The notes: generated from the sequence alone by a model not told the origin. 64,000 bases of DNA from an uncultured bacterium (GCA_963845185.1 CAWJRG010000009.1:512001-576000); one strand, 5' to 3'; positions 1,853-36,054 are shown, numbered from the stretch's first letter. Program-made: numbers and translations.

Positions 1853-4800
1853 ATGAAAAAAATTTCAAGAGGGGTTTTTGTTTCATTATTTTTCAAAACT
1901 GCAATATATTCTATAATATCAATATTTTTTCTTTCCCTAAGCAGCTCGATATACGCAAATTATTCCTCAATCACCGGAGTTACTATCAACCCGCCGAACC
2001 CAGCGCTGGGGCAGCCGTTTAATCTCAGTATTCAGATGTGCCTTGACGAATATAACACTCCGAATGAACTTGTTGTGGCCGCAAGCACAAGCAGTGCTTT
2101 CCAGAATCCCGGCATAAACGGGCAGGTATTTTTATTGAGCAGTTTGGGTGTTGACGTCCACAGTTCAAACCCGAACAACGCAAGCAATGGATATGTTGAT
2201 TTCGGCTGCCATCTCACCCAGCCGACGCCGTTTGTCACGAACTGCACGGATTGCGCTGGATCATACGCCATGTCTGTCACCGAATCATATAACCTTACCA
2301 TGCCCAGTGCTGCTGAGCTCGGAAGCCAGTGCGGCGGCGCATCGACCATATATCTGCAGATCGGATCATATAGTTTTTATTTTTACAACACCACCTGGAC
2401 GTCACTTTACAACGGTGCCTGCGGCGCGTATGAAACAAGCTGGGCGTTGCCTGCGCCGCCTGCAAATTCAATAACATTAAGCCAGAGGGCGGAAGGCGAA
2501 CTGCAGTCTGTCGGAGACCTGGTCTTATATTCCATCGATTATTCTTACGGCAACGGGCCGTTGACGATCACGGACAGCCTGCCGGGAAGCGGCAACCTGT
2601 CGCTTGCGACCTACGGGCCTTTGTCTATTACAGGCGGCACGATCACGGCACCGGCCTTAGGCTCGACATCCGGCACGATCACATGGAATTTCCCGAATTC
2701 GACAACCACGAAGCAGGGAACAGTCTGGCTGCTGATGAAAATGACCACTGCAATATCCGCAGGCACCCAGGTGCAGAATACCGCAAGCGCGGCAAGCGGC
2801 TCAAACAATATGAATTCATCGGCAATTGTCACTGCCGGACAGCCTGCCGTATCGGTGCAGAAATTTGAAAGCGCAAGCGCCTTGACGGCCATGGCCGGGA
2901 ACTCAGCGACGATAACATATTACCTTAATTACGAGGTAAACGGCGACCAGATGAAAGCTTTCAGGGCTTTTGACGATACTGCACTCGGCGCGTACACTTC
3001 ATTGCCGCCTTCGGGCTGGAAATTCATCCCGTCAGGCGCTGATAACGGTACGTGGACAATATCCGATTTCTGCGGTACAGGGGACAGGGTGCTTTGGGGC
3101 GCAGCGCAGACAAATTCTTACCCGGCCCTTTTGCTTGACGACCCGGCGCCTTCAAACGTACAGATATGCACAGGATTAGTTGAGGCCGATGTCCTTATTA
3201 ACCCGGGCTCAGACCCCGGGGCGGACGGGCTTGTGATATTGAGGAGCAACGGTTTGACAGGCAATTTAAATTATTCTTATTCATTGCTTTTATCACTGGA
3301 TACGGCGCCTGCAAACGGATATATATCGATACAAAAATGCTCGGCAGGGACATGCTCGTGGTACGCACCTGAGACTACATTTCCCATCACGGGGAATACC
3401 TGGTACAGGACAAAGACAAATATGACTGTAAGCGGGAATGATTATGTATTCCAGTATAAAATATGGCAGGTTGGCCAGCCTGAACCGTCCGGATACCTTG
3501 GAATATGGACAGACTCGGGCGCAGCGGCTAACGCGAGCTTTAATTGCTCGGGAACAGGGACATACCTGGACTGGAGGCCCGGGGTGGGCGAGCAGTCCGG
3601 TGTTTACGGGAACGAAAATGACGAATATAATAACTTTATTGCTTACGCTCCCAGGACGGCTGCAAACGCGGCATTATTCGACACGGTACCTGCAGGATTA
3701 ACGTATATTTCATCAAGCCCAATCGGCACAAATTCAGCCGGCTTTTTAACATGGAACCTCGGCAATATAAGCTACCAGAGCGGAACATACACCTGGTGGG
3801 CGTCCACGAACGCCTGCGGCCAGAGCTTTACAAACGTTGCAGGTATAGGCGGCACGGGCATGGCGCCGCAATTTTCAAACCCTGTTGTGTCCGGCCTGAA
3901 CTGCATATCGCCCACAATCACATTAACTACGCCGCCATCCAGCACGCCTTCAGTTACATATACGATTTCGCCAACAACCACAAACATACTGACAAAGACA
4001 GCAACAATGACATATACACCGGTTAATACAGCTGTGAATACAGCTACAATTACAGTAACATTTACAACAACACCAACGGCAGCTTCGCCAACATTCACAA
4101 ATATACCGACAAAAACAGTAACAATGACCGCGATTAATACGGCAGTTGTTACTGCGACAGTGACATCAACGCAGATACCGCCCGGCTCGACGATGACAAG
4201 CACGCCGACAGTATCGCCGACAATAGCTATAAACCTGTCTGCAAGTTTAACGGTATCACCGGCAAGCGCGGCAGCAGGACAGGGCATAACAGTGATAATG
4301 CAGGTAGTCAATACAGGGACTAACACCGCAAACAATGTGCAACCGTCTTCTTTAATACAGACAGGAGGAGGGGTTGCTGCTTTTTTAAGCGGGCCAAGCC
4401 CTGCAAGCGCAACAATAGCCGGAGGATTTTCGGCATCATTCACATGGGTATATAACGTAACCATTTGCGGCAATATTACATTCAGCTGCACGGCAAGCGG
4501 TACCGATGCCGTAGACGGGGTAAGCACGACAAGCATGTCGGCGTCGAGCAATACATTCACGTGCGCGACAGCGACAGCGACATATACACAGGTACCGCCG
4601 GGCTCGACACTGACAGCAACAAGAACTGTGACACCGATAGACTCGCTGACATCAATTGTAACCGCATCATTCACGCCTACAATACCGCTATGCCTGGTTG
4701 ATACACTTTCAAATTGCAACAGCACCAATGTGTGGGGCGGTCAGTGGTATACATATAACGACAGCAGCTACGGCGGGACATCGGTTGTGTGGCCGGGAGC

Positions 4801-7800
4801 AGGAAGTACATTTATAATGAGTTCGCCCGGTTTTGACGGCGGGTCGGACTGCGCGGCGCAGATGACAGGTGTTGTAACGACAGCCTACCCCGGCGGGTTT
4901 ATTGGCATGGATTCCCAGTTAAACGCAAACGCGGGATCTCCTACATACCAGGAGACGAATATCAGCGGTGCTACAGGAGTAATGTTCTGGTGCAAAGGGG
5001 ACGGGAAAAACTATACCATAAAGATACCTTATACAAGCAATACCGGAAGCTCATTGACCGGTAATGATGATTATTCATATAGTTTTTATGTATTCGCGTC
5101 TTCCTGGACGCAGATAGGCATACCTTTCTCGGGAGGGTACTTCAAACAGGCGGGAACGGGCACAGCAGTGCCGTTTGCGACGGTATTACAGCATGCGAAA
5201 GACATACAATTCCAGACCAGCGGCCAGCCGCAATCCAGCGTGGACCTGTGGATAGACGACCTGCAGCTGTACGGCGGGTGCTCGATGCCCACATCGACAA
5301 GCACGCCGACGCCGACACGAACCACGATATTGACCAGGACCGTATCGCCTACGCCCACAGTAACATATACGTATATTCCAATATTTTCACCGACGCCGAC
5401 AATTACGCCAACATTTACATGCACCGCTACACCGGCAAGCCTGTGCTCGGTGGACACTATGGCAAGCTGCAGTAACGTCAATGTTTGGGGTGGGGCATGG
5501 TTCACCTATAACGATGCAAACGACGGAGGCACTTCGGTTGTATGGCCGGCTCAGGGACAGACTTTTATAATGAGCTCTCCGGGGTACAGCGGCGGAGCTG
5601 ACTGCGCCGCGCAGATGACGGGCGTGGTTACCATAGCTTACCAGTATGGTTTTATAGGCATGGGCACCTTATTAAATCCGAATGCAGGCGCGCCGAATTA
5701 CCAGTCCACTGACTTAAGCGGAGCATTGGGAGTCAGTTTTTATACCAGAGGCGATGGGAACGTCTATACGATAATAATTACGTACCTTAACAGCAGCGGC
5801 AACACAATGACCAACTGGGACGATTATGCATACACTTTTGTCGCGTTCTCAGGATGGTCGCAGTACACTATACCTTTCACCGCGTTTACGCAACCGTATT
5901 ACACTCCATCACAATACCAGGTACCGCTGGTTACAGTATTGCAAAACGCCAAACAATTCCAGTTCGCGACAACAACCCAGCCTCTTGCCGGCGTCGACCT
6001 TTGGATAGACAACCTTTCGGTATACGGGTGCATAATACCTGCGTTTACTCCTACGATAACAACAACATTAACTTCAGTCCCGTCGGGTTCAACCATGACA
6101 AATACGCCGACTATTACTTTGACTTCGACGATTACACCGACTTACACTATGACCCCAACTGTCAACCCGAATACAGTATGCTATAGCCTGCAGTGGGGCA
6201 CCCCGGGGACAGGCATCGGCCAGTTTGATTACCCTTACGGTGTAGCTGTGGACGCGAGCGGTTATGTATATGTCGCCGACCTCTACAATAACAGGGTGGA
6301 AAAATTCACACCTGCAGGCGCCTATGTCACCCAATGGGGAAGCAGCGGCAGCGGAAACGGGCAGTTCTCATACCCTGTGTCCATAGCAATTGACGCCGGC
6401 GGTTATGTTTATGTGACCGACTGGAACAACAGCAGGGTGGAAAAATTCACGTCAACAGGGACGTATGTAACCCAATGGGGGAGTTACGGCACAGGGGCAG
6501 GGCAGTTTGAATACCCATACGGTATTGCCGTGGACAGCAGCGGTTACTTATATGTTACTGATGCGGAAAACAGCAGGGTGGAAAAATTTACATCAACAGG
6601 AGCATATGTGACACAATGGGGAACTAATGGGTCCGGCAACAGCCAGTTTAATTATCCGGCGGGAATAGCCGTTGACAGCAGCGGCTATGTTTATGTGGCG
6701 GATTCTTATAATTACAGGATACAAAAATTCACTTCAACAGGGACTTATGTCACCCAGTGGGGAAGCAACGGCAGCGGCAACAGCCAGTTTGATTATCCTT
6801 TCGGTATTACAATAGGCGGGAACGGTTTTGTATATGTGGCCGATACCTATAACAACAGGGTGCAGGCATTCACGTCAACAGGCACATACATAACGCAGTG
6901 GGGCAGCTATGGCACGGGAAACGGGCAGTTTAACGGGCCTGTGGGTATTGTGACAGACAGCACAGGAGCAATATACGTATCGGATTATAACAATAACAGG
7001 GTACAAAAATTTATTGCCTGCGTGCAACTGACAGCAACGCCGACCAATACGGGCCTGATAGCCTCGGCTACGTATACGCCTACGTACACGGTTACGGCCA
7101 CGTCAACCAGGACAAGCACCCAGGTCCCTTCAGGCTCGACCATGACAAGCACTCCGACAATGACCCCGACAATAGGCATAAATCTGGTAGCGGGCCTTAT
7201 TGTATCGCCAAACGTTGTGGCAATAGGCCAGGATGTCACGGTATTAATGGAAGTAGTTAATGTTGGCACTGATACCGCAAACAGCGTAAAAGCGTCACCG
7301 CTTTTCCAGACAGGAGGAGGAGCTGCGGTGCTTGTAAGCTCCCCGAATCCGTCCAGCACGAATATAGGGCCGGGTTCCTATACAATATTCACGTGGGTTT
7401 ACAGCATGGCAATATGCGGAGATATAGTATTCAACGGGACAGCGAGCGGGACCGACGCTGCAGACGGCGTGAGCATGACAAGCCCACAATGTTCGAGCAA
7501 TACTCTTTCATGTTCTTCCGGAGCCCCGACTGCCACAAGTACAATGTATGTAGCGCCGGGTTCGACATATACAATTACGCCTACGCTCACGCCGACATTC
7601 ACGATGATACCGTCAGGCTCCACTTTAACAGTTACACCGGTGGTGACACCCACAATAGGCATTAACCTTGTTGCAGGACTGACTGTTTCGCCTGCCAGCG
7701 CGGGGGTGGACCAGGATATTACAGTAATAATGCAGGTGGTGAATATAGGGACAAACACCGCGGATAATGTCGTGCCGTCATCGCTTATGCAGGCTGGAGG

Positions 7801-8882
7801 CGGGGCAGCTGTACCGGTGAATCCTGTAAGCCCGTCGAGCGCATCGATAGGCTCATATGCACAGGCGTCATTTACATGGGTATATAAGGTTGTAATATGC
7901 AACAACCTTACATTCAGCGGAACGGTAAGCGGCACGGACGCCGTTGACAGTGTCAGCATGACGAGCTCGCAGTGCGAAAGCAATATGATGACGTGCGCCA
8001 CGGCAACGCCTACAACATCAAATACTATGACGGCGACGCCTACAATAACATTGACAAATACACCGACGATCACGCCTACAATAGCGATAAACCTCATTGC
8101 AAGCATGTCTTTGTCTCCGTCAAGCGCGGCTGGCGGGCAGCAGATTACCGTAGTGATGCAGGTGGCAAATACCGGCATGAACACTGCAAATAACGTCCTG
8201 CCCGTCGGTCCTGTCACAGTCTGGAGGCGGCGCGGCCCTGCTGAGCGGGAATGCGCCTTCGGCAATAAACATAGCAGGCAATACATTGGCATCGTTTACA
8301 TGGGTATATAATGTGGCGATTTGCGGAAACATAACATTCAGCGGAACAGTAAGCGGCGCAGACGCCGTGGATGGTGTCAGCATGACGAGCAGCCAGGTTA
8401 GCACAAACTTGTTCACGTGCGCAACAGTAACAATGACCGTAACACCTACATGGACATTGACTGCCACTCCGACATTGACCGCGACACAGACGGTTTTTCT
8501 GAGCACAACAAGCACCCAGACAATGACAACGACCTGCACTCCTACGCCTTTGCCTGGAAAGCTGGCAATAGGCCCGGTGAAACCATACCCGAACCCGTAT
8601 AACCCGGGGACAGGGCTGCCTTTGAAGATAGCTGTCAATGTAACCACAGGAGATATAGATAATATGACGCTGAAAATATATACCGCGTCATACAGGCTGG
8701 TAAAGGAGCAGGTTTTCCGGGGCGCGGATATACAGGAAGTATCGGACGGGCTTGTTGTCCTGCAGTATGACAGCACAAACCTGGCCGTGTTAAGTTCAGG
8801 GACATATTATTACATTGTGATGGCTGAAAAAGGCGGAACAAAAGTAAAGTCCAAGTCAGACGCAATTATCATATTGAAATAG
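1853..8882 (+). pseudogene. Giant secreted multidomain protein (~2342 aa if repaired): signal peptide, Cys-rich N domain, 2 DUF11-like domains (one with an inserted lectin-like domain), 2 CBM11/CIA30-like domains, 6 NHL repeats, 4 Ig-like modules, Thr linkers, YPNP tail; frameshift at ~8201 (real or sequencing error)
   Basis: ORFs 1853..8311 and 8286..8882 join if one C of CCC at 8201-8203 is removed, restoring VLPSVLSQSGGGAA, which matches the three earlier module copies; AAGGAG upstream of the ATG. Confidence 0.85.
6181..7020 (+). repeat. Six tandem 47-aa NHL repeats (6-bladed beta-propeller)
   Basis: QWGxxGxGxxQFxxP...G.VYV.D..N.RV.KF repeated six times at 141-bp period. Confidence 0.9.
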
Positions 8883-30296: not shown

Positions 30297-31940
30297 ATGG
30301 CAACAAAGAAAACTTCAGTACCAATAAATTCAAATATTATTCCAATTATATTATTCTGTTTATTCTTATCAATTTCATCTTACCTGTCCGCAGCACCGGC
30401 CCAGCTCCAGATTTCAGGGACTCATTTTGTCACTGTAAGCAACGGCTGCCAGATGAGACTGGTGGGCGTTGATGTGGACGCTTTGGAATGGTCTCCAAAC
30501 GGTTATGGACCGCCGAGCGGGGCAAACGGCGACATGACGCAATCTGTTACCGCTGCAGTAAACACCTGGAAAGCGAATATTGTGAGAATACCGGTAAGCC
30601 AGGATTTCTGGTTCGGTTACGGCAATTCGCACGGTACGCCGACAAGCGCGGCAGCATACAGGACCCTGGTCGATAATGTAGTGACAGCCGCGTCAAATCT
30701 TAATTGCTATGTTGAGCTGGATTTACACTGGTCAGGTACCGGAACGTGGGGAACTGCAGCGCAGCAGGACAGCATGCCCGACAACAATTCCATAGCATTC
30801 TGGCAGGATGCAGCAACAAGGTACGCGAATAACCCGGCTGTAATGTTCGACCTGTATAATGAGCCATTTCCAACCGCATGGAGTACATGGAAGAATGGTG
30901 GGACAAGTAACGAGGGTTTCACTTGCCCGGGATTCCAAACACTGGTTCAGACTGTGCGGGATAAAGGCGCGAAAAATGTAATTATGGTCGGCGGCCTTGG
31001 ATATTCATGGGACATGACAGGAATTTCAAGCAATGCTTTAACCGATAAAAACACAGGCAACACCTTAACCGGTTACGGCATAGCGTATGAAGCCCACATA
31101 TACGACAATAAAGGTGGAACAACCGAGTCTGATAAAATAAATTTATGGAACACAAACGTAACTGTAGCGATAACAGCAGGGTATTGCGTAATAATATCGG
31201 AATTTGGGGCAGCCAGCGGCGAGGACAACAGCGGTTGCACGCCTTTTGAGTCTGACCTCATTTCATGGATAAACGGAAACAACACTGATAGTTACGTATA
31301 CAGCGCAATGGCATGGGACTTTAATACGCAGGCAGCACCGTGCCTTATATCGGATTGGAACTTTACAGCTACAACGTGTCATGGAGCACAGGTGAAAAGC
31401 TGGCTGGCAGCGGTGACGCCTCCGAACTGCGGCGGCGGCTCCACCCCAACAAACACACCCATTTTAACGCGTACTTTCACGCCTACTTTCACACGCACAC
31501 CAATGCCTACCAGCACCATAACTTTCACGCCCACGCCCATGCCTGCAATGTCGCTGACAAAAACCGTAAATAAAGCTTCTCTTACGCTTGGAGACACGGT
31601 CACATTTACGCTTTCTTACCAGAATACAGGTTCTGTTGCAGCACCTAATGTGCCGTTATGGGACACCATACCGGGCTGTGTTTCGTATATAGGCAGCAAT
31701 CCTGCCGCGACGCAGAATGGGAGCCTGCTCAGCTGGAACCTGGGAAACATTAATTCGGGGAGCAACGGAAGCGTAACATGGTGGGGCGTGGTCACCTGCT
31801 ATTCATATAACCCGCTTTTTAACAAAATGTTTTATTTTGCTTATTATGACAAAAAGTTTTTTACGCACATATACAATTATTATTATGACTTTGCATGGGC
31901 TGACGGCCCGTATAAAAAGAAATTGCAGGAGATGGAGTAA
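30297..31940 (+). CDS. Secreted GH5 glycoside hydrolase + Thr/Pro linker + C-terminally incomplete DUF11-like domain + aromatic tail; no YPNP tail
   Basis: NIVRIP, DLHW, FDLYNEP, AHIY, ISEFG, AWDF; LTKTVNK...GDTVTFTLSYQNTG...WDTIP...LSWNLG. Confidence 0.92.
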   Translation: MATKKTSVPINSNIIPIILFCLFLSISSYLSAAPAQLQISGTHFVTVSNGCQMRLVGVDVDALEWSPNGYGPPSGANGDMTQSVTAAVNTWKANIVRIPVSQDFWFGYGNSHGTPTSAAAYRTLVDNVVTAASNLNCYVELDLHWSGTGTWGTAAQQDSMPDNNSIAFWQDAATRYANNPAVMFDLYNEPFPTAWSTWKNGGTSNEGFTCPGFQTLVQTVRDKGAKNVIMVGGLGYSWDMTGISSNALTDKNTGNTLTGYGIAYEAHIYDNKGGTTESDKINLWNTNVTVAITAGYCVIISEFGAASGEDNSGCTPFESDLISWINGNNTDSYVYSAMAWDFNTQAAPCLISDWNFTATTCHGAQVKSWLAAVTPPNCGGGSTPTNTPILTRTFTPTFTRTPMPTSTITFTPTPMPAMSLTKTVNKASLTLGDTVTFTLSYQNTGSVAAPNVPLWDTIPGCVSYIGSNPAATQNGSLLSWNLGNINSGSNGSVTWWGVVTCYSYNPLFNKMFYFAYYDKKFFTHIYNYYYDFAWADGPYKKKLQEME

Positions 31941-31941
31941 A

Positions 31942-34900
31942 ATGCCAAAGGCTAGGGCAAAAGAAAAACGAAGCAGAGAAGGGGCGTGTAAAAATAATCT
32001 GATAATATTTTTTATTTTTTACGCAATTATACTAATGCCTTCCATGGCTTTTGCTACGACAACTGTCCAGAACATGGCAGTCTCACCGGGCACTGTATCC
32101 GCAGGCCAGAATGTAACGATAACATTTTCATTTATGAGCACAAATACAGGCTGTAAAATATCATATTTCGCGGCTTTATCAAACCAGTGCGCCCTGCAAA
32201 ACGCGGGTACAGCGGGCCAGTCCATACTTGTTTCAGAATCAGGCATGGATGTATTAAACACAAGCGTTAACGGCGGCAGGACCAGCCTGTGCAACGGGGA
32301 CAATACCTATCACGCTACAACAGAAACCACGTGCGGCATGGAAACAGGCGGGGGGCCTATTTACATGACCGTGCCGTCAAGCTGGGCAAACGGCACATAT
32401 TACGCGATAGTTGCGGTCAGGGACTGCAATATATACATGAACCCGGCATGCTGCTCAAATATGGACAACCAGTATTGCGTGTCATTTAATGTGGGTGTGG
32501 CGGGTTCGCCGACAAATACGCCCTTGCCGACGAGGACAACGACGCCCACGCCCGTGCCTGTCGGGGTTATAGTCAATGTGGCGCAGATAGGTTTTGGCAA
32601 TTCCAGCAGCGTTTCTTTTAATGTTTTATCGCCAACGCAGACAAGCACGCAGCAGTCAAACCCGACTTTTACACGGACCTCAACAATGACAAATACAAAG
32701 ACAAGCACACCATCTTTTACATTTACATGCACAAATACATTCACTCCAACAAACACATTTACCGTAACAGGCACAAATACGCCGCAGAACACGGTTACAT
32801 TAACCGCTACAGGCACAAGCACGGCATTGCCTACAGCTACAAATACGGCAACGCCTACACTTTCGGCGACAAGGACAAATACTGTGACCCCGACATATAC
32901 GGCTACGGCGACAAATTCGCAATTGCCTACAGCTACGCGCACAAATACACCGACATATACAGTTACCTTAACGTGGACAAGCACGTTGCAGAACACGGTT
33001 ACATTAACCGCTACAGGCACAAGCACGCCATTGCCTACAGCTACAAATACGGCAACACCTACACTGTCAGCGACAAGGACAAATACTGTTACGCCTACAT
33101 TTACCAGTACAACTACCGTGACTTATACAAATACCCTGACATGGACAAACACGCCACAAAATACAGCAACATTAACAGCTACAGGAACAAATACGTTATT
33201 GCCGACAGGAACAAACACACAATCTCCTTCACCTTCGGCTACGGTGAGCATGACAGCTACGAGGACGAGCACAGCGACAAATACGCCGACATATACAGCC
33301 ACCCTGACATGGACAAACACACCACAGAACACAATAACTTTGACAGCTACAGGAACAAATACACCATCAGCTACAGCTACATTTACAGCAACAAAGACAA
33401 GCACAGCAACAAATACACCGACATATACAGTTACCTTAACGTGGACAAACACACCACAGAACACGGTGACTTTAACCGGGACAGAAACGAATACACCCTC
33501 AGCTACAGCTACATTTACAGCGACAAGAACAAATACATTGACATATACGGCTACGATGACGTGGACCAACACACTGCAGAATACAATAACTTTAACAGTT
33601 ACAGGAACGGATACATCCTCAGTTACGCCTACGTTTACGGTGACAAAAACAAACACTGCATCTAATACACCGACATATACATGTACAATGACAGGCACAA
33701 GTACGGTGACGTTGACATTTACACTGACAAATACGCCTTCATTAACAGTAACAGCAACTTTCACAAGAACAGTTACACCGACATTTACCAGTTCACCTGT
33801 GGTATCACCTACACCCACATTTACGAATATAATATTCACATGGACAATAACGCAAACATTTACCATATCCCCGACAATTACAATGACAAACACGTTATTG
33901 CCCACAGGAACAAACACAGCAACGCCTTCATTAACGGCGACAAGGTCAAATACGGCAACACCAACATTCACTTCGACACCCACGGCAACATATACAGTCA
34001 CCCTGACGTGGACAAACACACCGCAGAACACGGCAACTTTAACTGAGACAAGCACAAATACCCAGCTGCCAACAGGGACAAATACAGCAACGCCTTCATT
34101 AACGGCAACAAGGTCGAGCACGGCAACACCGACTTTAACTGTAACATCTACGGCGACGTATTCAGTCACCCTTACATTGACAAATACGCCGCAGAACACA
34201 GCGACTTTTACAGCAACAGAAACAAACACATCTTCTGCGTCGCCTACATTTACAATGACAAGGACAAATACTGCCACAAATACCCAGACAAACACACCTT
34301 CATTTACAACAACACTGACTTTTACAAGAACAGTTACATTGACATTTACCAGTTCACCCGCGGTATCACCCACACCCACATTTACGAACATAATATTCAC
34401 ATGGACAATAACGCAAACATTTACAATATCCCCGACAATTACCATGACAAACACGCCGATCCCGACAGAAACAAATACAGAGACGCCTACTTTTACAGCA
34501 ACACGGACAAACACAGCAACGATGACTTTAACTACGACATTGACGCAGACATATACAATTACTTTAACGTGGACAAGCACAGCGCTAGATACTGCTACTT
34601 CAACGGAAACAGGCACAAATACAATATTGCCAACATGGACAAGCACAGCGACATTAACGTTCACAGATACAAGGACATACACTGCGACAATTACGCCGAC
34701 ATATTCAGCAACATTGACCTGGACAAACACGCCGCAGAACACAACAACCTTAACTGTTACTGCTACAAATAGCTGCGCCTGTACAGGGACTCCGACTTAT
34801 ACAGCAACTATTTTTACGCCTACAATTACTCCTACATATACAGTGTCATTGACAATTACCCTGACAAACACGCCTTCGCCTACAGCAACATATACAGCTA

Positions 34901-36054
34901 CACCTACGGGAACAAAGACAATAACACCAACATGGAGCCCGACGAATACACCGACACTGATAGATACACCTACATTCACCGGTACAGCAACTGCCACAAT
35001 TACACTTACGTTTACAGGAACATCGACATTTACAGCAACAATTATATACACACTTACCAATACTGAAATTGTATCGGAAACACCGACTTATACAGCCACA
35101 ATTTACACGCCGACAATTTCGCCGACATCTACAATAACACCAACAATAACATTAACGGAATCGCCTTCATTAACAGATACGGCAACGTACACTACAACAG
35201 GAACAAAGACATGGACAAATACACCATTACCTACGCTTACAAATACGCCACAAAACACCGCAACAAGTACAGTCACGCCTACTGTAGGAGCAAATCTTGT
35301 AGCGGCTATTACTGTATCGCCGGGGAGTGCAATGATCGGCCAGGATATAACTGTAATAATGCAAGTAGTAAATACAGGGACAAATGGCGTGGATAACTTA
35401 CAGCCTTCAACGCTGGCTCAAACAGGCGGTGGAACAGCTGTCCTTGTAAGCGGGCCCAGCCCTGCAAGTACTGCAATAGCCTCGGGGACAGCAGGATCAT
35501 TTACGTGGATATATACAGTGACTTCTGTGGCAGGGAACATAACATTCAGCGGCAGTGCAAGCGGCACAGACGCGGTAAACGGCATAATAGTTTCAACTTC
35601 ATCAGTGTCGAGTAATCCTTTAATATGCGTTACAGCCACAGCAACATTAGCAAATTCGATTACAGTTACCATAACGGCGACAAATACAATAACGCCGAGT
35701 ATTACGGCGACCAATCCAGTGGCGACAGCCAGCTTTACACCGACAAACCAGGTTACTGTTTTGACTGTCACTGCTACTATTGTTATCGCAGAACCGCCAC
35801 GGATATATCCAAACCCGGTGAAAGACAGGTTTAGATATGTATTTACCCTGACAGAAGACGCGGATATAGAAATAACAATATATACAGCGGCATACAGGCT
35901 GATAGCAAAATTTGACCAGAGACAGAGCGCAGGGTTAAACACTATTGTAATAGACACACAAGGTATGGCAAACGGAACATATTTTATCGTATATAAGCAA
36001 AAAGGGCAGACAACAAATACCAGAAGAATTGATAAATTTATTGTTTTAAAATAA
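31942..36054 (+). CDS. Secreted non-catalytic stalk protein: Cys-rich N domain, orphan DUF11-like terminal strand, ~880-aa Thr-rich region, Ig-like module, YPNP tail
   Basis: ATG 1 nt after the GH5 stop, preceded by GGAG; signal peptide ending AFA; internal duplications (~33760-33890 vs ~34320-34450); tail IYPNP...NGTYF...KFIVLK. Confidence 0.85.
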   Translation: MPKARAKEKRSREGACKNNLIIFFIFYAIILMPSMAFATTTVQNMAVSPGTVSAGQNVTITFSFMSTNTGCKISYFAALSNQCALQNAGTAGQSILVSESGMDVLNTSVNGGRTSLCNGDNTYHATTETTCGMETGGGPIYMTVPSSWANGTYYAIVAVRDCNIYMNPACCSNMDNQYCVSFNVGVAGSPTNTPLPTRTTTPTPVPVGVIVNVAQIGFGNSSSVSFNVLSPTQTSTQQSNPTFTRTSTMTNTKTSTPSFTFTCTNTFTPTNTFTVTGTNTPQNTVTLTATGTSTALPTATNTATPTLSATRTNTVTPTYTATATNSQLPTATRTNTPTYTVTLTWTSTLQNTVTLTATGTSTPLPTATNTATPTLSATRTNTVTPTFTSTTTVTYTNTLTWTNTPQNTATLTATGTNTLLPTGTNTQSPSPSATVSMTATRTSTATNTPTYTATLTWTNTPQNTITLTATGTNTPSATATFTATKTSTATNTPTYTVTLTWTNTPQNTVTLTGTETNTPSATATFTATRTNTLTYTATMTWTNTLQNTITLTVTGTDTSSVTPTFTVTKTNTASNTPTYTCTMTGTSTVTLTFTLTNTPSLTVTATFTRTVTPTFTSSPVVSPTPTFTNIIFTWTITQTFTISPTITMTNTLLPTGTNTATPSLTATRSNTATPTFTSTPTATYTVTLTWTNTPQNTATLTETSTNTQLPTGTNTATPSLTATRSSTATPTLTVTSTATYSVTLTLTNTPQNTATFTATETNTSSASPTFTMTRTNTATNTQTNTPSFTTTLTFTRTVTLTFTSSPAVSPTPTFTNIIFTWTITQTFTISPTITMTNTPIPTETNTETPTFTATRTNTATMTLTTTLTQTYTITLTWTSTALDTATSTETGTNTILPTWTSTATLTFTDTRTYTATITPTYSATLTWTNTPQNTTTLTVTATNSCACTGTPTYTATIFTPTITPTYTVSLTITLTNTPSPTATYTATPTGTKTITPTWSPTNTPTLIDTPTFTGTATATITLTFTGTSTFTATIIYTLTNTEIVSETPTYTATIYTPTISPTSTITPTITLTESPSLTDTATYTTTGTKTWTNTPLPTLTNTPQNTATSTVTPTVGANLVAAITVSPGSAMIGQDITVIMQVVNTGTNGVDNLQPSTLAQTGGGTAVLVSGPSPASTAIASGTAGSFTWIYTVTSVAGNITFSGSASGTDAVNGIIVSTSSVSSNPLICVTATATLANSITVTITATNTITPSITATNPVATASFTPTNQVTVLTVTATIVIAEPPRIYPNPVKDRFRYVFTLTEDADIEITIYTAAYRLIAKFDQRQSAGLNTIVIDTQGMANGTYFIVYKQKGQTTNTRRIDKFIVLK

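Follow-up and report, generated by a model that had tools for sequence, protein, structure and literature searches.

In a 64,000-nucleotide stretch of DNA from an uncultured bacterium (GCA_963845185.1, CAWJRG010000009.1:512001-576000; hereafter the window, with positions counted from its first nucleotide), a gene for a GH5 enzyme ends in a DUF11 (CLIPPER) domain that stops short of its final two strands, and the gene immediately downstream encodes a Thr-rich stalk protein carrying an isolated, hydrophobic 26-aa peptide. We refer to the truncated domain as the catcher, to the peptide as the tag and to whatever precedes the catcher as its cargo. Catcher and tag genes stand next to each other in many related genomes, and the three residues expected of an isopeptide bond are invariant, two in the catcher and one in the tag. 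Taking the sequences together, we judge it slightly more probable than improbable that complementation in trans docks the enzyme, which lacks a C-terminal sorting domain (CTD) for the T9SS (type IX secretion system), near the tip of the stalk, where it may be locked by a Lys–Asn isopeptide bond.

A truncated domain in the GH5 enzyme and a candidate asparagine in the next gene

Pfam scans assign residues 80–335 of the GH5 protein to Cellulase (E 9e-32) and residues 419–495 to DUF11 (E 2.8e-10), and detect no Por_Secre_tail or T9SS sorting domain. The DUF11 match covers profile positions 3–80 of 114 when the whole protein is scanned (40.9 bits) and 3–81 when the C-terminal piece is scanned alone (45.4 bits), the cut-off of PF01345 being 24.6; the final strand, ...GSVTWWGVVTC, ends at 31799. 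Catchers of this and related genomes likewise run from profile position 2–3 to 74–86, with one reaching 97, and complete DUF11 domains of the same lineage extend to position 99–114. Thirteen of 15 aligned catchers match DUF11 in Pfam at E ≤0.01. When nine intact domains were compared with the 15 catchers by hhalign, the probability was 97% and the match ended at column 84 of 122; with the C-terminal halves of 13 intact domains of this genome, the probability was 98% and the match ended at the TWW strand, column 70 of 116. We conclude that the DUF11 domain at the GH5 C-terminus is truncated and is missing its final two strands, as had been proposed in the original prediction, which was made from the window's sequence.

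The isopeptide triad is not found in one chain: Lys422 and Asp456 are in the GH5 protein, no Asn strand follows them, and it is the stalk protein that has the candidate, Asn212. On re-translation, the predicted positions of the gene junction and of the Lys, Asp and Asn codons all proved exact. The GH5 stop codon occupies 31938–31940 and the stalk ATG lies at 31942, 1 nt later and in another frame. As anticipated, the second gene begins with what looks, by eye, like a signal peptide of its own, and its translation places the isolated peptide, with Asn at 32575, between two Thr-rich linkers. A frameshift or read-through fusion of the two open reading frames (ORFs) was considered and rejected, since a ribosome-binding site, a start codon and a signal peptide belong to the stalk ORF itself, and all three are kept in a paralogue. 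The further claim that the GH5 is the only carbohydrate-active enzyme of its cluster without a sorting domain, or YPNP tail, is limited to the genes that were translated (GH9, GH18 and GH9-CBM9), each of which does end in such a domain.

The pair recurs in this genome and across its order

Searched with profile hidden Markov models (HMMs), the 3.5-Mb genome yielded exactly five catchers at a C-terminus and an equal number of tags, and in all five cases (5/5) the catcher ORF lies directly upstream of the tag ORF; a sixth catcher-like match is due to an intact domain that a frameshift cuts short. A 781-nt junction block recurs on another contig at 84% identity. There, too, this linker, catcher and tail lead up to a stalk gene of the same kind, and the enzyme at this copy is of the Sortilin/BNR type, not a GH5. 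Three pairs follow one another at G000:C6:5.5–23.6 kb (L067), their cargoes being a Sortilin/BNR-type enzyme, a 347-aa protein and a 378-aa protein.

Across the order, catcher-then-tag pairs were found in 13 of 24 genomes and in 7 of 10 families (the tag in genome G012 was seen by eye only), and in two further genomes catchers are present but the gene after them extends past the end of the retrieved DNA. This bears out the expectation that related genomes would hold truncated DUF11 genes followed by tag genes. The association is also seen from the other side, starting from the N-terminal tip domain of the stalk protein (N-dom). All 17 distinct tag-bearing N-dom loci with upstream DNA (19 table rows, two loci having been fetched twice) have a catcher ORF that ends 59–186 nt before the N-dom, compared with one of 14 tag-less loci; that one, L019 in G012, has a tag variant missed by the HMM. 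We conclude that the gene order catcher, then tag recurs clearly beyond chance.

The GH5 domain itself has a different distribution. Homologues gave 17 matches in 7 of the 24 genomes, and none of the 14 loci inspected besides that of the window has a catcher, a tag or an N-dom. At eight of these 14 loci, GH5, Thr linker and sorting domain form a single ORF; the remaining ones run off the locus or into Ns, or their longest ORF is another gene. Since the GH5 is found with a sorting domain elsewhere and with a catcher here, one enzyme family would have two ways of display, in cis and, in the window, by way of the catcher. Homologous loci with one continuous gene that includes an intact DUF11 were not seen, although the original prediction had named continuous genes as evidence that would speak against it: it is the split pair that is conserved, and the GH5 homologues are without DUF11. 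A one-off insertion into a continuous GH5–DUF11–stalk gene was rejected on these grounds.

Outside the order, one of 17 genomes of the same phylum matches the N-dom query, and the match is an intact adhesin-type protein. A profile search of 1.84 billion representative sequences with the catcher alignment returned 39633 proteins at E ≤0.001, the best 150 of which are all long multi-repeat DUF11 proteins (1141–7419 aa), so that this search is uninformative as to where C-terminal truncated forms occur. A word-based homologue search with GH5 residues 410–547 gave seven matches, among them three from this genome, a 386-aa protein made of a small domain plus catcher, and an 837-aa adhesin-like protein ending in a catcher.

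Lys, Asp and Asn are invariant and both halves are under purifying selection

The 15 catchers are 21–88% identical to that of the window and have only six invariant columns, two of which are the Lys and the Asp. In the 10 aligned tags, Gly, Asn and Gly are invariant; in additional tags beyond these, the Asn is present throughout, by eye, and the second Gly is not in all. The three residues singled out in the original prediction are thus the invariant ones. For three paralogous pairs of this genome, the ratio of nonsynonymous to synonymous substitution (dN/dS) was 0.08–0.12 for the catcher, 0.14–0.17 for the N-dom, 0.19–0.22 for the tag and 0.32–0.33, the highest of the four segments, for the tail that follows the catcher, with dS of 0.17–1.5. 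Both halves are under purifying selection, and neither catcher nor tag is decaying.

Cargoes, sequence classes and a candidate adaptor

The cargo varies between pairs and is of at least three kinds: GH5, a Sortilin/BNR-type domain, and small or multi-domain proteins without a Pfam family on the cargo part. Further cargoes include proteins with extra CLIPPER-type domains and a protein bearing CBM3. The commonest cargo is a Cys-containing domain of ~230 aa, without a Pfam family, that is fused directly to the catcher (G000:C6:18193–19326, G000:C6:12641–13681, L016–L018, L020, L033, L041, L042 and P0158).

Catchers and tags of this genome fall into two sequence classes, and the two members of a pair always come from the same one: three pairs, including that of the window, are of class I and two are of class II. 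The middle one of the three successive pairs on G000:C6, a class II pair at G000:C6:12641–17977, belongs to the other class than its neighbors. The fifth pair of the genome is on the minus strand at G000:C1:161278–173878; its tag protein is a 3445-aa ORF in which a right-handed beta-helix-like region precedes the tip domain and the Thr/Pro stalk meets a frame change at its end.

In a relative, a single protein (L030; G023:C153, minus strand) combines signal peptide, N-dom, tag, Thr linker and catcher. From its sequence, it is a candidate for an adaptor that would link more than two proteins into a chain; because it has both tag and catcher, short chains would be possible in that organism. Its gene is flanked by another catcher gene on the upstream side and by a gene for a beta-helix protein on the downstream side.

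Structure predictions

With the 15-sequence alignment, AlphaFold2 predicted seven strands for the window catcher at a confidence (pLDDT) of 92–97, and a tail below 50 from residue 104 on; the tail of a relative reached about 50 and was modeled as helices, not strands. Confident strands next to a disordered tail give no sign of self-completion. The possibility raised in the original prediction, that the GH5 domain completes itself with its own tail, thus finds no echo in the model, in which the tail is not folded back. When a relative's catcher was aligned with the known CLIPPER structure 9IFR, the Lys column fell on the Lys of the VVK motif and the Asp on the NDT motif. The giant adhesin-like paralogues, for instance that encoded at 1853–8311, likewise have the N-dom as their first domain; the N-dom of a homologue was modeled with pLDDT mostly 80–94, and its structural matches are generic beta-sandwich or carbohydrate-binding module (CBM)-like ones only (Z ≤8.8). 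Co-folding of catcher and tag gave ipSAE values of 0.21 and 0.24 against a mark of 0.32; these runs had no controls and are counted neither way.

Proposed complementation in trans and its alternatives

The catcher lacks its last strands and a neighboring peptide could supply them; attachment of the enzyme to the stalk by this plug, perhaps covalent, is therefore probable. The GH5 enzyme would be exported by Sec bearing CLIPPER strands A–F with Lys422 and Asp456, and the 26-aa peptide of the stalk would insert as the missing strands, a case of donor-strand complementation in trans. A Lys–Asn isopeptide bond may then form spontaneously, and a covalent lock between Lys422 and Asn212 is possible. 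The enzyme would be fixed near the tip of the ~900-aa Thr-rich stalk, whose own CTD would provide T9SS export and surface anchoring. Binding and bond are what we infer, as are the site of assembly, in the periplasm or at the cell surface, and the crossing of the outer membrane by a CTD-less enzyme.

A more far-reaching version, which we regard as doubtful, sees here an enzyme-free covalent counterpart of the cellulosome. Secreted enzymes without a sorting signal would click through split CLIPPER domains onto the tips of T9SS-anchored Thr-rich stalks, orthogonal classes would assign the cargo, and proteins with both tag and catcher would serve as adaptors; assembly would be periplasmic, the cargo riding through the T9SS on the signal of the stalk.

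Several observations weigh against docking in trans. Homology of the tag to the missing strands is not demonstrable, and the likeness is a weak one at the level of a motif. In pairwise alignment only NVAxIG aligns, and the score was reached by 5842 of 20000 shuffles; none of 10 tags has a DUF11 match in Pfam, the sole match being a weak and unrelated one to EP400_N (E 0.024). Compared by hhalign, the tags gave a probability of 0.4% with one type of intact domain and of 30% (E 5e-4) with the other, the latter a weak match that involves the second half only. This match falls beyond the region of the intact domain that the catcher covers, so that tag and catcher would be complementary. The original prediction had taken the orphan peptide for the missing part of the domain; the NVAxIG likeness stands, but neither pairwise significance nor a DUF11 match goes with it. 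9IFR is among the top structural matches of the catcher, but level there with generic Ig-like sandwiches: for the window catcher the model gave VIA Z 9.2 (rmsd 2.3 over 91 aligned residues) and for a relative's catcher Z 8.8, scores shared with AP-4 mu, integrin and further sandwiches of the Ig-like kind. In the AlphaFold2 model of the L030 protein, which holds a natural tag and a catcher, tag residues 153–173 are coil with pLDDT <50 while N-dom and catcher are confident, so no docking in cis is predicted. This model was built from a shallow alignment with unpaired rows (A8), and the tag and catcher of L030 may not be cognate; its outcome counts mildly against docking, short of refutation. The conserved motif that follows the catcher is left unaccounted for, and we know of no route by which the T9SS would carry a second chain without a CTD. 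Finally, the recurrence is partly due to shared descent and block duplication: the tag-bearing loci are kin, and their counts therefore overstate independence.

Two observations on alignment and paralogues stand beside these. MAFFT repeatedly placed the tags on the catcher's own E–F hairpin (W-N-L-G-N-I...G-S-V; alignments A5 and A7), so that the tag is as similar to an internal hairpin as to the missing one. The intact paralogous domain that had been offered as a control, at ~3655–3910, is real in its C-terminal half (~3605–3946), which occurs in 14 large ORFs of the genome, but its Lys-bearing first strands lie ~240 aa upstream. In these giant paralogues the second DUF11 (window ~2840–3946, residues ~330–700 of the protein encoded at 1853–8311; also L025, L027 and L035–L038) is interrupted by a nested domain, Lys-bearing first strands and Asp-bearing strand being ~240 aa apart; DUF11 in this lineage therefore tolerates large insertions.

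The genes could also be operon partners whose products do not complement each other, an explanation that we find rather unlikely. An old recombination would have inserted an adhesin gene's 5' end into DUF11, and the seven-strand remnant would persist as a self-sufficient Ig-like or CBM-like module; the tag would have some other role, such as prolonging the tip domain or serving as a site of processing or glycosylation, and the genes would stay together through co-expression only. The lack of significant similarity between tag and DUF11 strands fits this, as do the confident AlphaFold2 fold of the catcher without an extra strand, the disordered tag beside a catcher in the L030 model, and the Foldseek list for the catcher, which is topped by CBM2 cellulose-binding modules (E 3.5e-4); moreover, the related compact CLIPPER_2 domains have seven strands (PMC12617251). 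However, mere partnership does not account for the invariance of Lys and Asp in a domain unable to bond in cis or of Asn in the tag, nor does it explain why five catchers pair with five tags across varied cargo or catchers precede 17/17 tag-bearing but 1/14 tag-less loci, and it leaves CTD-less secreted enzymes without a route to the surface. The same comparative evidence that favors a covalent complex would equally suit non-covalent complementation in trans, as in chaperone-usher or type V pili, with Lys, Asp and Asn kept for packing or hydrogen bonding. Oligomers of BsaA are SDS-stable even without the bond (bioRxiv 10.1101/2024.11.04.621531), and some DUF11 domains lack it (PMC12617251). 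Those bondless domains, however, do not conserve the triad positions (PMC12617251), whereas here all three are invariant across the whole range of identity, and we consider a purely non-covalent complex unlikely.

Completion of the catcher in cis by the tail of the GH5 protein, the tag gene being unrelated to the domain, has one point in its favor: the first ~20 tail residues (31800–31860; alignment columns 101–120) hold an order-wide motif, an aromatic residue or Arg, then Pro, then an aromatic residue and later aromatic-aromatic-Ala, whose codons vary synonymously among relatives. The disordered or helical tail models speak against it, however, as do the high dN/dS of the tail and its lack of a conserved Asn in the 15-catcher alignment, and we regard completion in cis as very improbable. 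A placeholder strand is one idea for the tail, unsupported by AlphaFold2. The tail DNA of the window looks like nearby intergenic DNA in its GC content (25%). A mere promoter signal at the DNA level was nevertheless rejected as the cause of the conservation, because relatives keep the amino acid motif with synonymous changes and without the AT-richness. Between the GH5 and stalk genes there is one promoter-like site (31819–31847), no more than expected by chance, and no terminator-like site. As for an artefact, in which misassembly or a sequencing frameshift would have split a single gene, Thr-rich repeats are difficult to assemble and the window gene at 1853–8311 does have a frameshift near 8181–8311. 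Yet the identical junction is found at five loci here and in 12 further assemblies, and a stop codon, ribosome-binding site, start codon, signal peptide and 147-aa domain stand between the halves, which makes such an origin hardly credible.

Features of the locus and T9SS context

The features of the two genes are listed in Table 1.

Table 1. Positions in the window of the GH5 and stalk genes and of the segments and residues discussed
Feature	Position	Strand	Description
GH5 "cargo" gene	30297..31940	+	547 aa; signal peptide, GH5 domain, Thr/Pro linker, truncated CLIPPER/DUF11 catcher, tail
Thr/Pro-rich linker	31440..31547	+	Joins GH5 domain to catcher; from translation
Catcher, aa 418-501	31548..31799	+	CLIPPER/DUF11 strands A-F, without the last two strands
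Lys422	31560..31562	+	Candidate isopeptide lysine; invariant in 15/15 catchers
Asp456	31662..31664	+	Candidate catalytic aspartate (WDTIP motif); invariant in 15/15 catchers
46-aa tail of GH5 protein	31800..31937	+	AT-rich DNA, 25% GC; includes ribosome-binding site of stalk gene
Stalk gene	31942..36054	+	1370 aa; signal peptide, tip domain, tag, Thr-rich stalk, Ig-like domain, T9SS C-terminal sorting domain
Signal peptide, aa 1-38	31942..32055	+	K/R-rich, hydrophobic, AFA; judged by eye
N-terminal tip domain (N-dom), aa 39-185	32056..32496	+	147 aa; beta-sandwich, no Pfam family
Tag VGVIVNVAQIGFGNSSSVSFNVLSPT, aa 207-232	32560..32637	+	26-aa hydrophobic island flanked by Thr/Pro-rich linkers; proposed donor of the two missing strands
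Asn212	32575..32577	+	Candidate isopeptide asparagine; invariant in 10/10 aligned tags
Thr-rich repetitive stalk, aa 233-1150	32638..35289	+	42% Thr, 8% Pro, 7% Ser
Ig-like (CARDB/DUF11-like) domain	35290..35634	+	Read from sequence; no Pfam match at E ≤0.01; recurs in paralogues
T9SS C-terminal sorting domain (YPNP tail), aa 1288-1359	35803..36018	+	PF18962, E 3.4e-8, 34.1 bits (cut-off 27)

About 50 ORFs of the genome have a T9SS-type C-terminal domain. A 2148-aa ORF (G000:C9:~182500–188000) has four collinear matches to SprA, all below the cut-off, and the PorU model NF033707 gave 50 matches through its CTD part and one at model positions 335–442, none above the cut-off. Neither cohesin nor dockerin was found in Pfam scans of six window proteins (E ≤0.01) or of 15 cargo proteins (E ≤0.001). 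The adhesin-like gene at 1853–8311, of 2152 aa, changes frame near 8181–8311, and its last Ig-like and T9SS sorting domains continue at 8181..8882; the change may be a frameshift, a sequencing error or the mark of a pseudogene.

Comparison with known systems

DUF11 (PF01345) has been named CLIPPER and established as an intramolecular isopeptide domain of fibrillar adhesins, with the triad Lys715, Asp748 and Asn806 in structure 9IFR (PMC12617251). The family co-occurs with Por_secre_tail sorting domains (PMC12617251), as it does in the window. The window catcher matches the profile, aligns with 9IFR at the Lys and Asp motifs and would use the same kind of Lys–Asp–Asn triad. The difference is that the known domain has the triad and all strands in one chain, whereas here the domain stops at about position 81 and the Asn is in the product of another gene. 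Neither "split" nor "catcher" occurs in the text of the CLIPPER paper (PMC12617251). Among open-access papers and preprints, no description of a natural split DUF11/CLIPPER pair was found. One apparent mention of DUF11, in PMC11821415, was discarded because the text reads DUF1102, and PMC7031533, on cellulose-degrading Goldbacteria, has no mention of T9SS, threonine, DUF11, linker or sorting domain. In the window, the proposed split DUF11 pair has an enzyme as its cargo.

Isopeptag/pilin-C, SpyTag/SpyCatcher and SnoopTag/SnoopCatcher are engineered split isopeptide pairs; in the first of them the tag is the C-terminal strand region bearing Asn, as is proposed for the window tag. In these pairs and, at the level of sequence, in that of the window, Lys and catalytic acid stay together in one partner, and the remaining reactive residue is supplied by a short peptide. 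The engineered pairs are laboratory-made from Gram-positive CnaB-type or pilin domains. Such engineering splits domains that form the bond spontaneously (PMC5487036, PMC6539128). The window pair, in contrast, is natural, probably of the CnaA-like CLIPPER type and encoded by two adjacent genes, with an internal tag and a reaction that is predicted. If the two partners react, this would be a natural Tag/Catcher system, in which the spontaneous isopeptide ligation of two different proteins, hitherto mainly a laboratory invention, is used to build bacterial surface machines. The two classes and their variants across 13 genomes would then be candidate orthogonal ligation pairs, based on a CnaA-like fold that is not known to have been used in protein engineering so far.

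Natural intermolecular bonds of a related kind occur in fibers. BsaA of Clostridium perfringens undergoes donor-strand exchange and forms a spontaneous intermolecular bond through an N-E-K triad, as backed by mutants (bioRxiv 10.1101/2024.11.04.621531), and an intermolecular isopeptide bond after donor-strand exchange has been proposed for the archaeal thread filament (PMC9715654). As proposed for the window pair, a strand from another chain completes the beta-sheet and a spontaneous isopeptide bond joins the chains. These fibers are, however, homopolymers whose TasA-like or thread subunits have their donor strands at the N-terminus, whereas the window pair would join unlike partners, an enzyme and a stalk, through a CLIPPER fold with one internal tag per stalk, and its purpose would be enzyme display.

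With cohesin–dockerin cellulosomes and with direct T9SS display of carbohydrate-active enzymes, the proposed arrangement shares the placing of polysaccharide-degrading enzymes on a cell-surface scaffold; it differs from cellulosomes in that attachment would use a split Ig-like domain and might be covalent. If true, it raises the question of piggyback T9SS export for cargo without a C-terminal domain. An uncultured lineage that degrades cellulose would then also have a third mode of display for polysaccharide-degrading enzymes, beside cohesin–dockerin binding and the direct fusion of enzyme and sorting domain.

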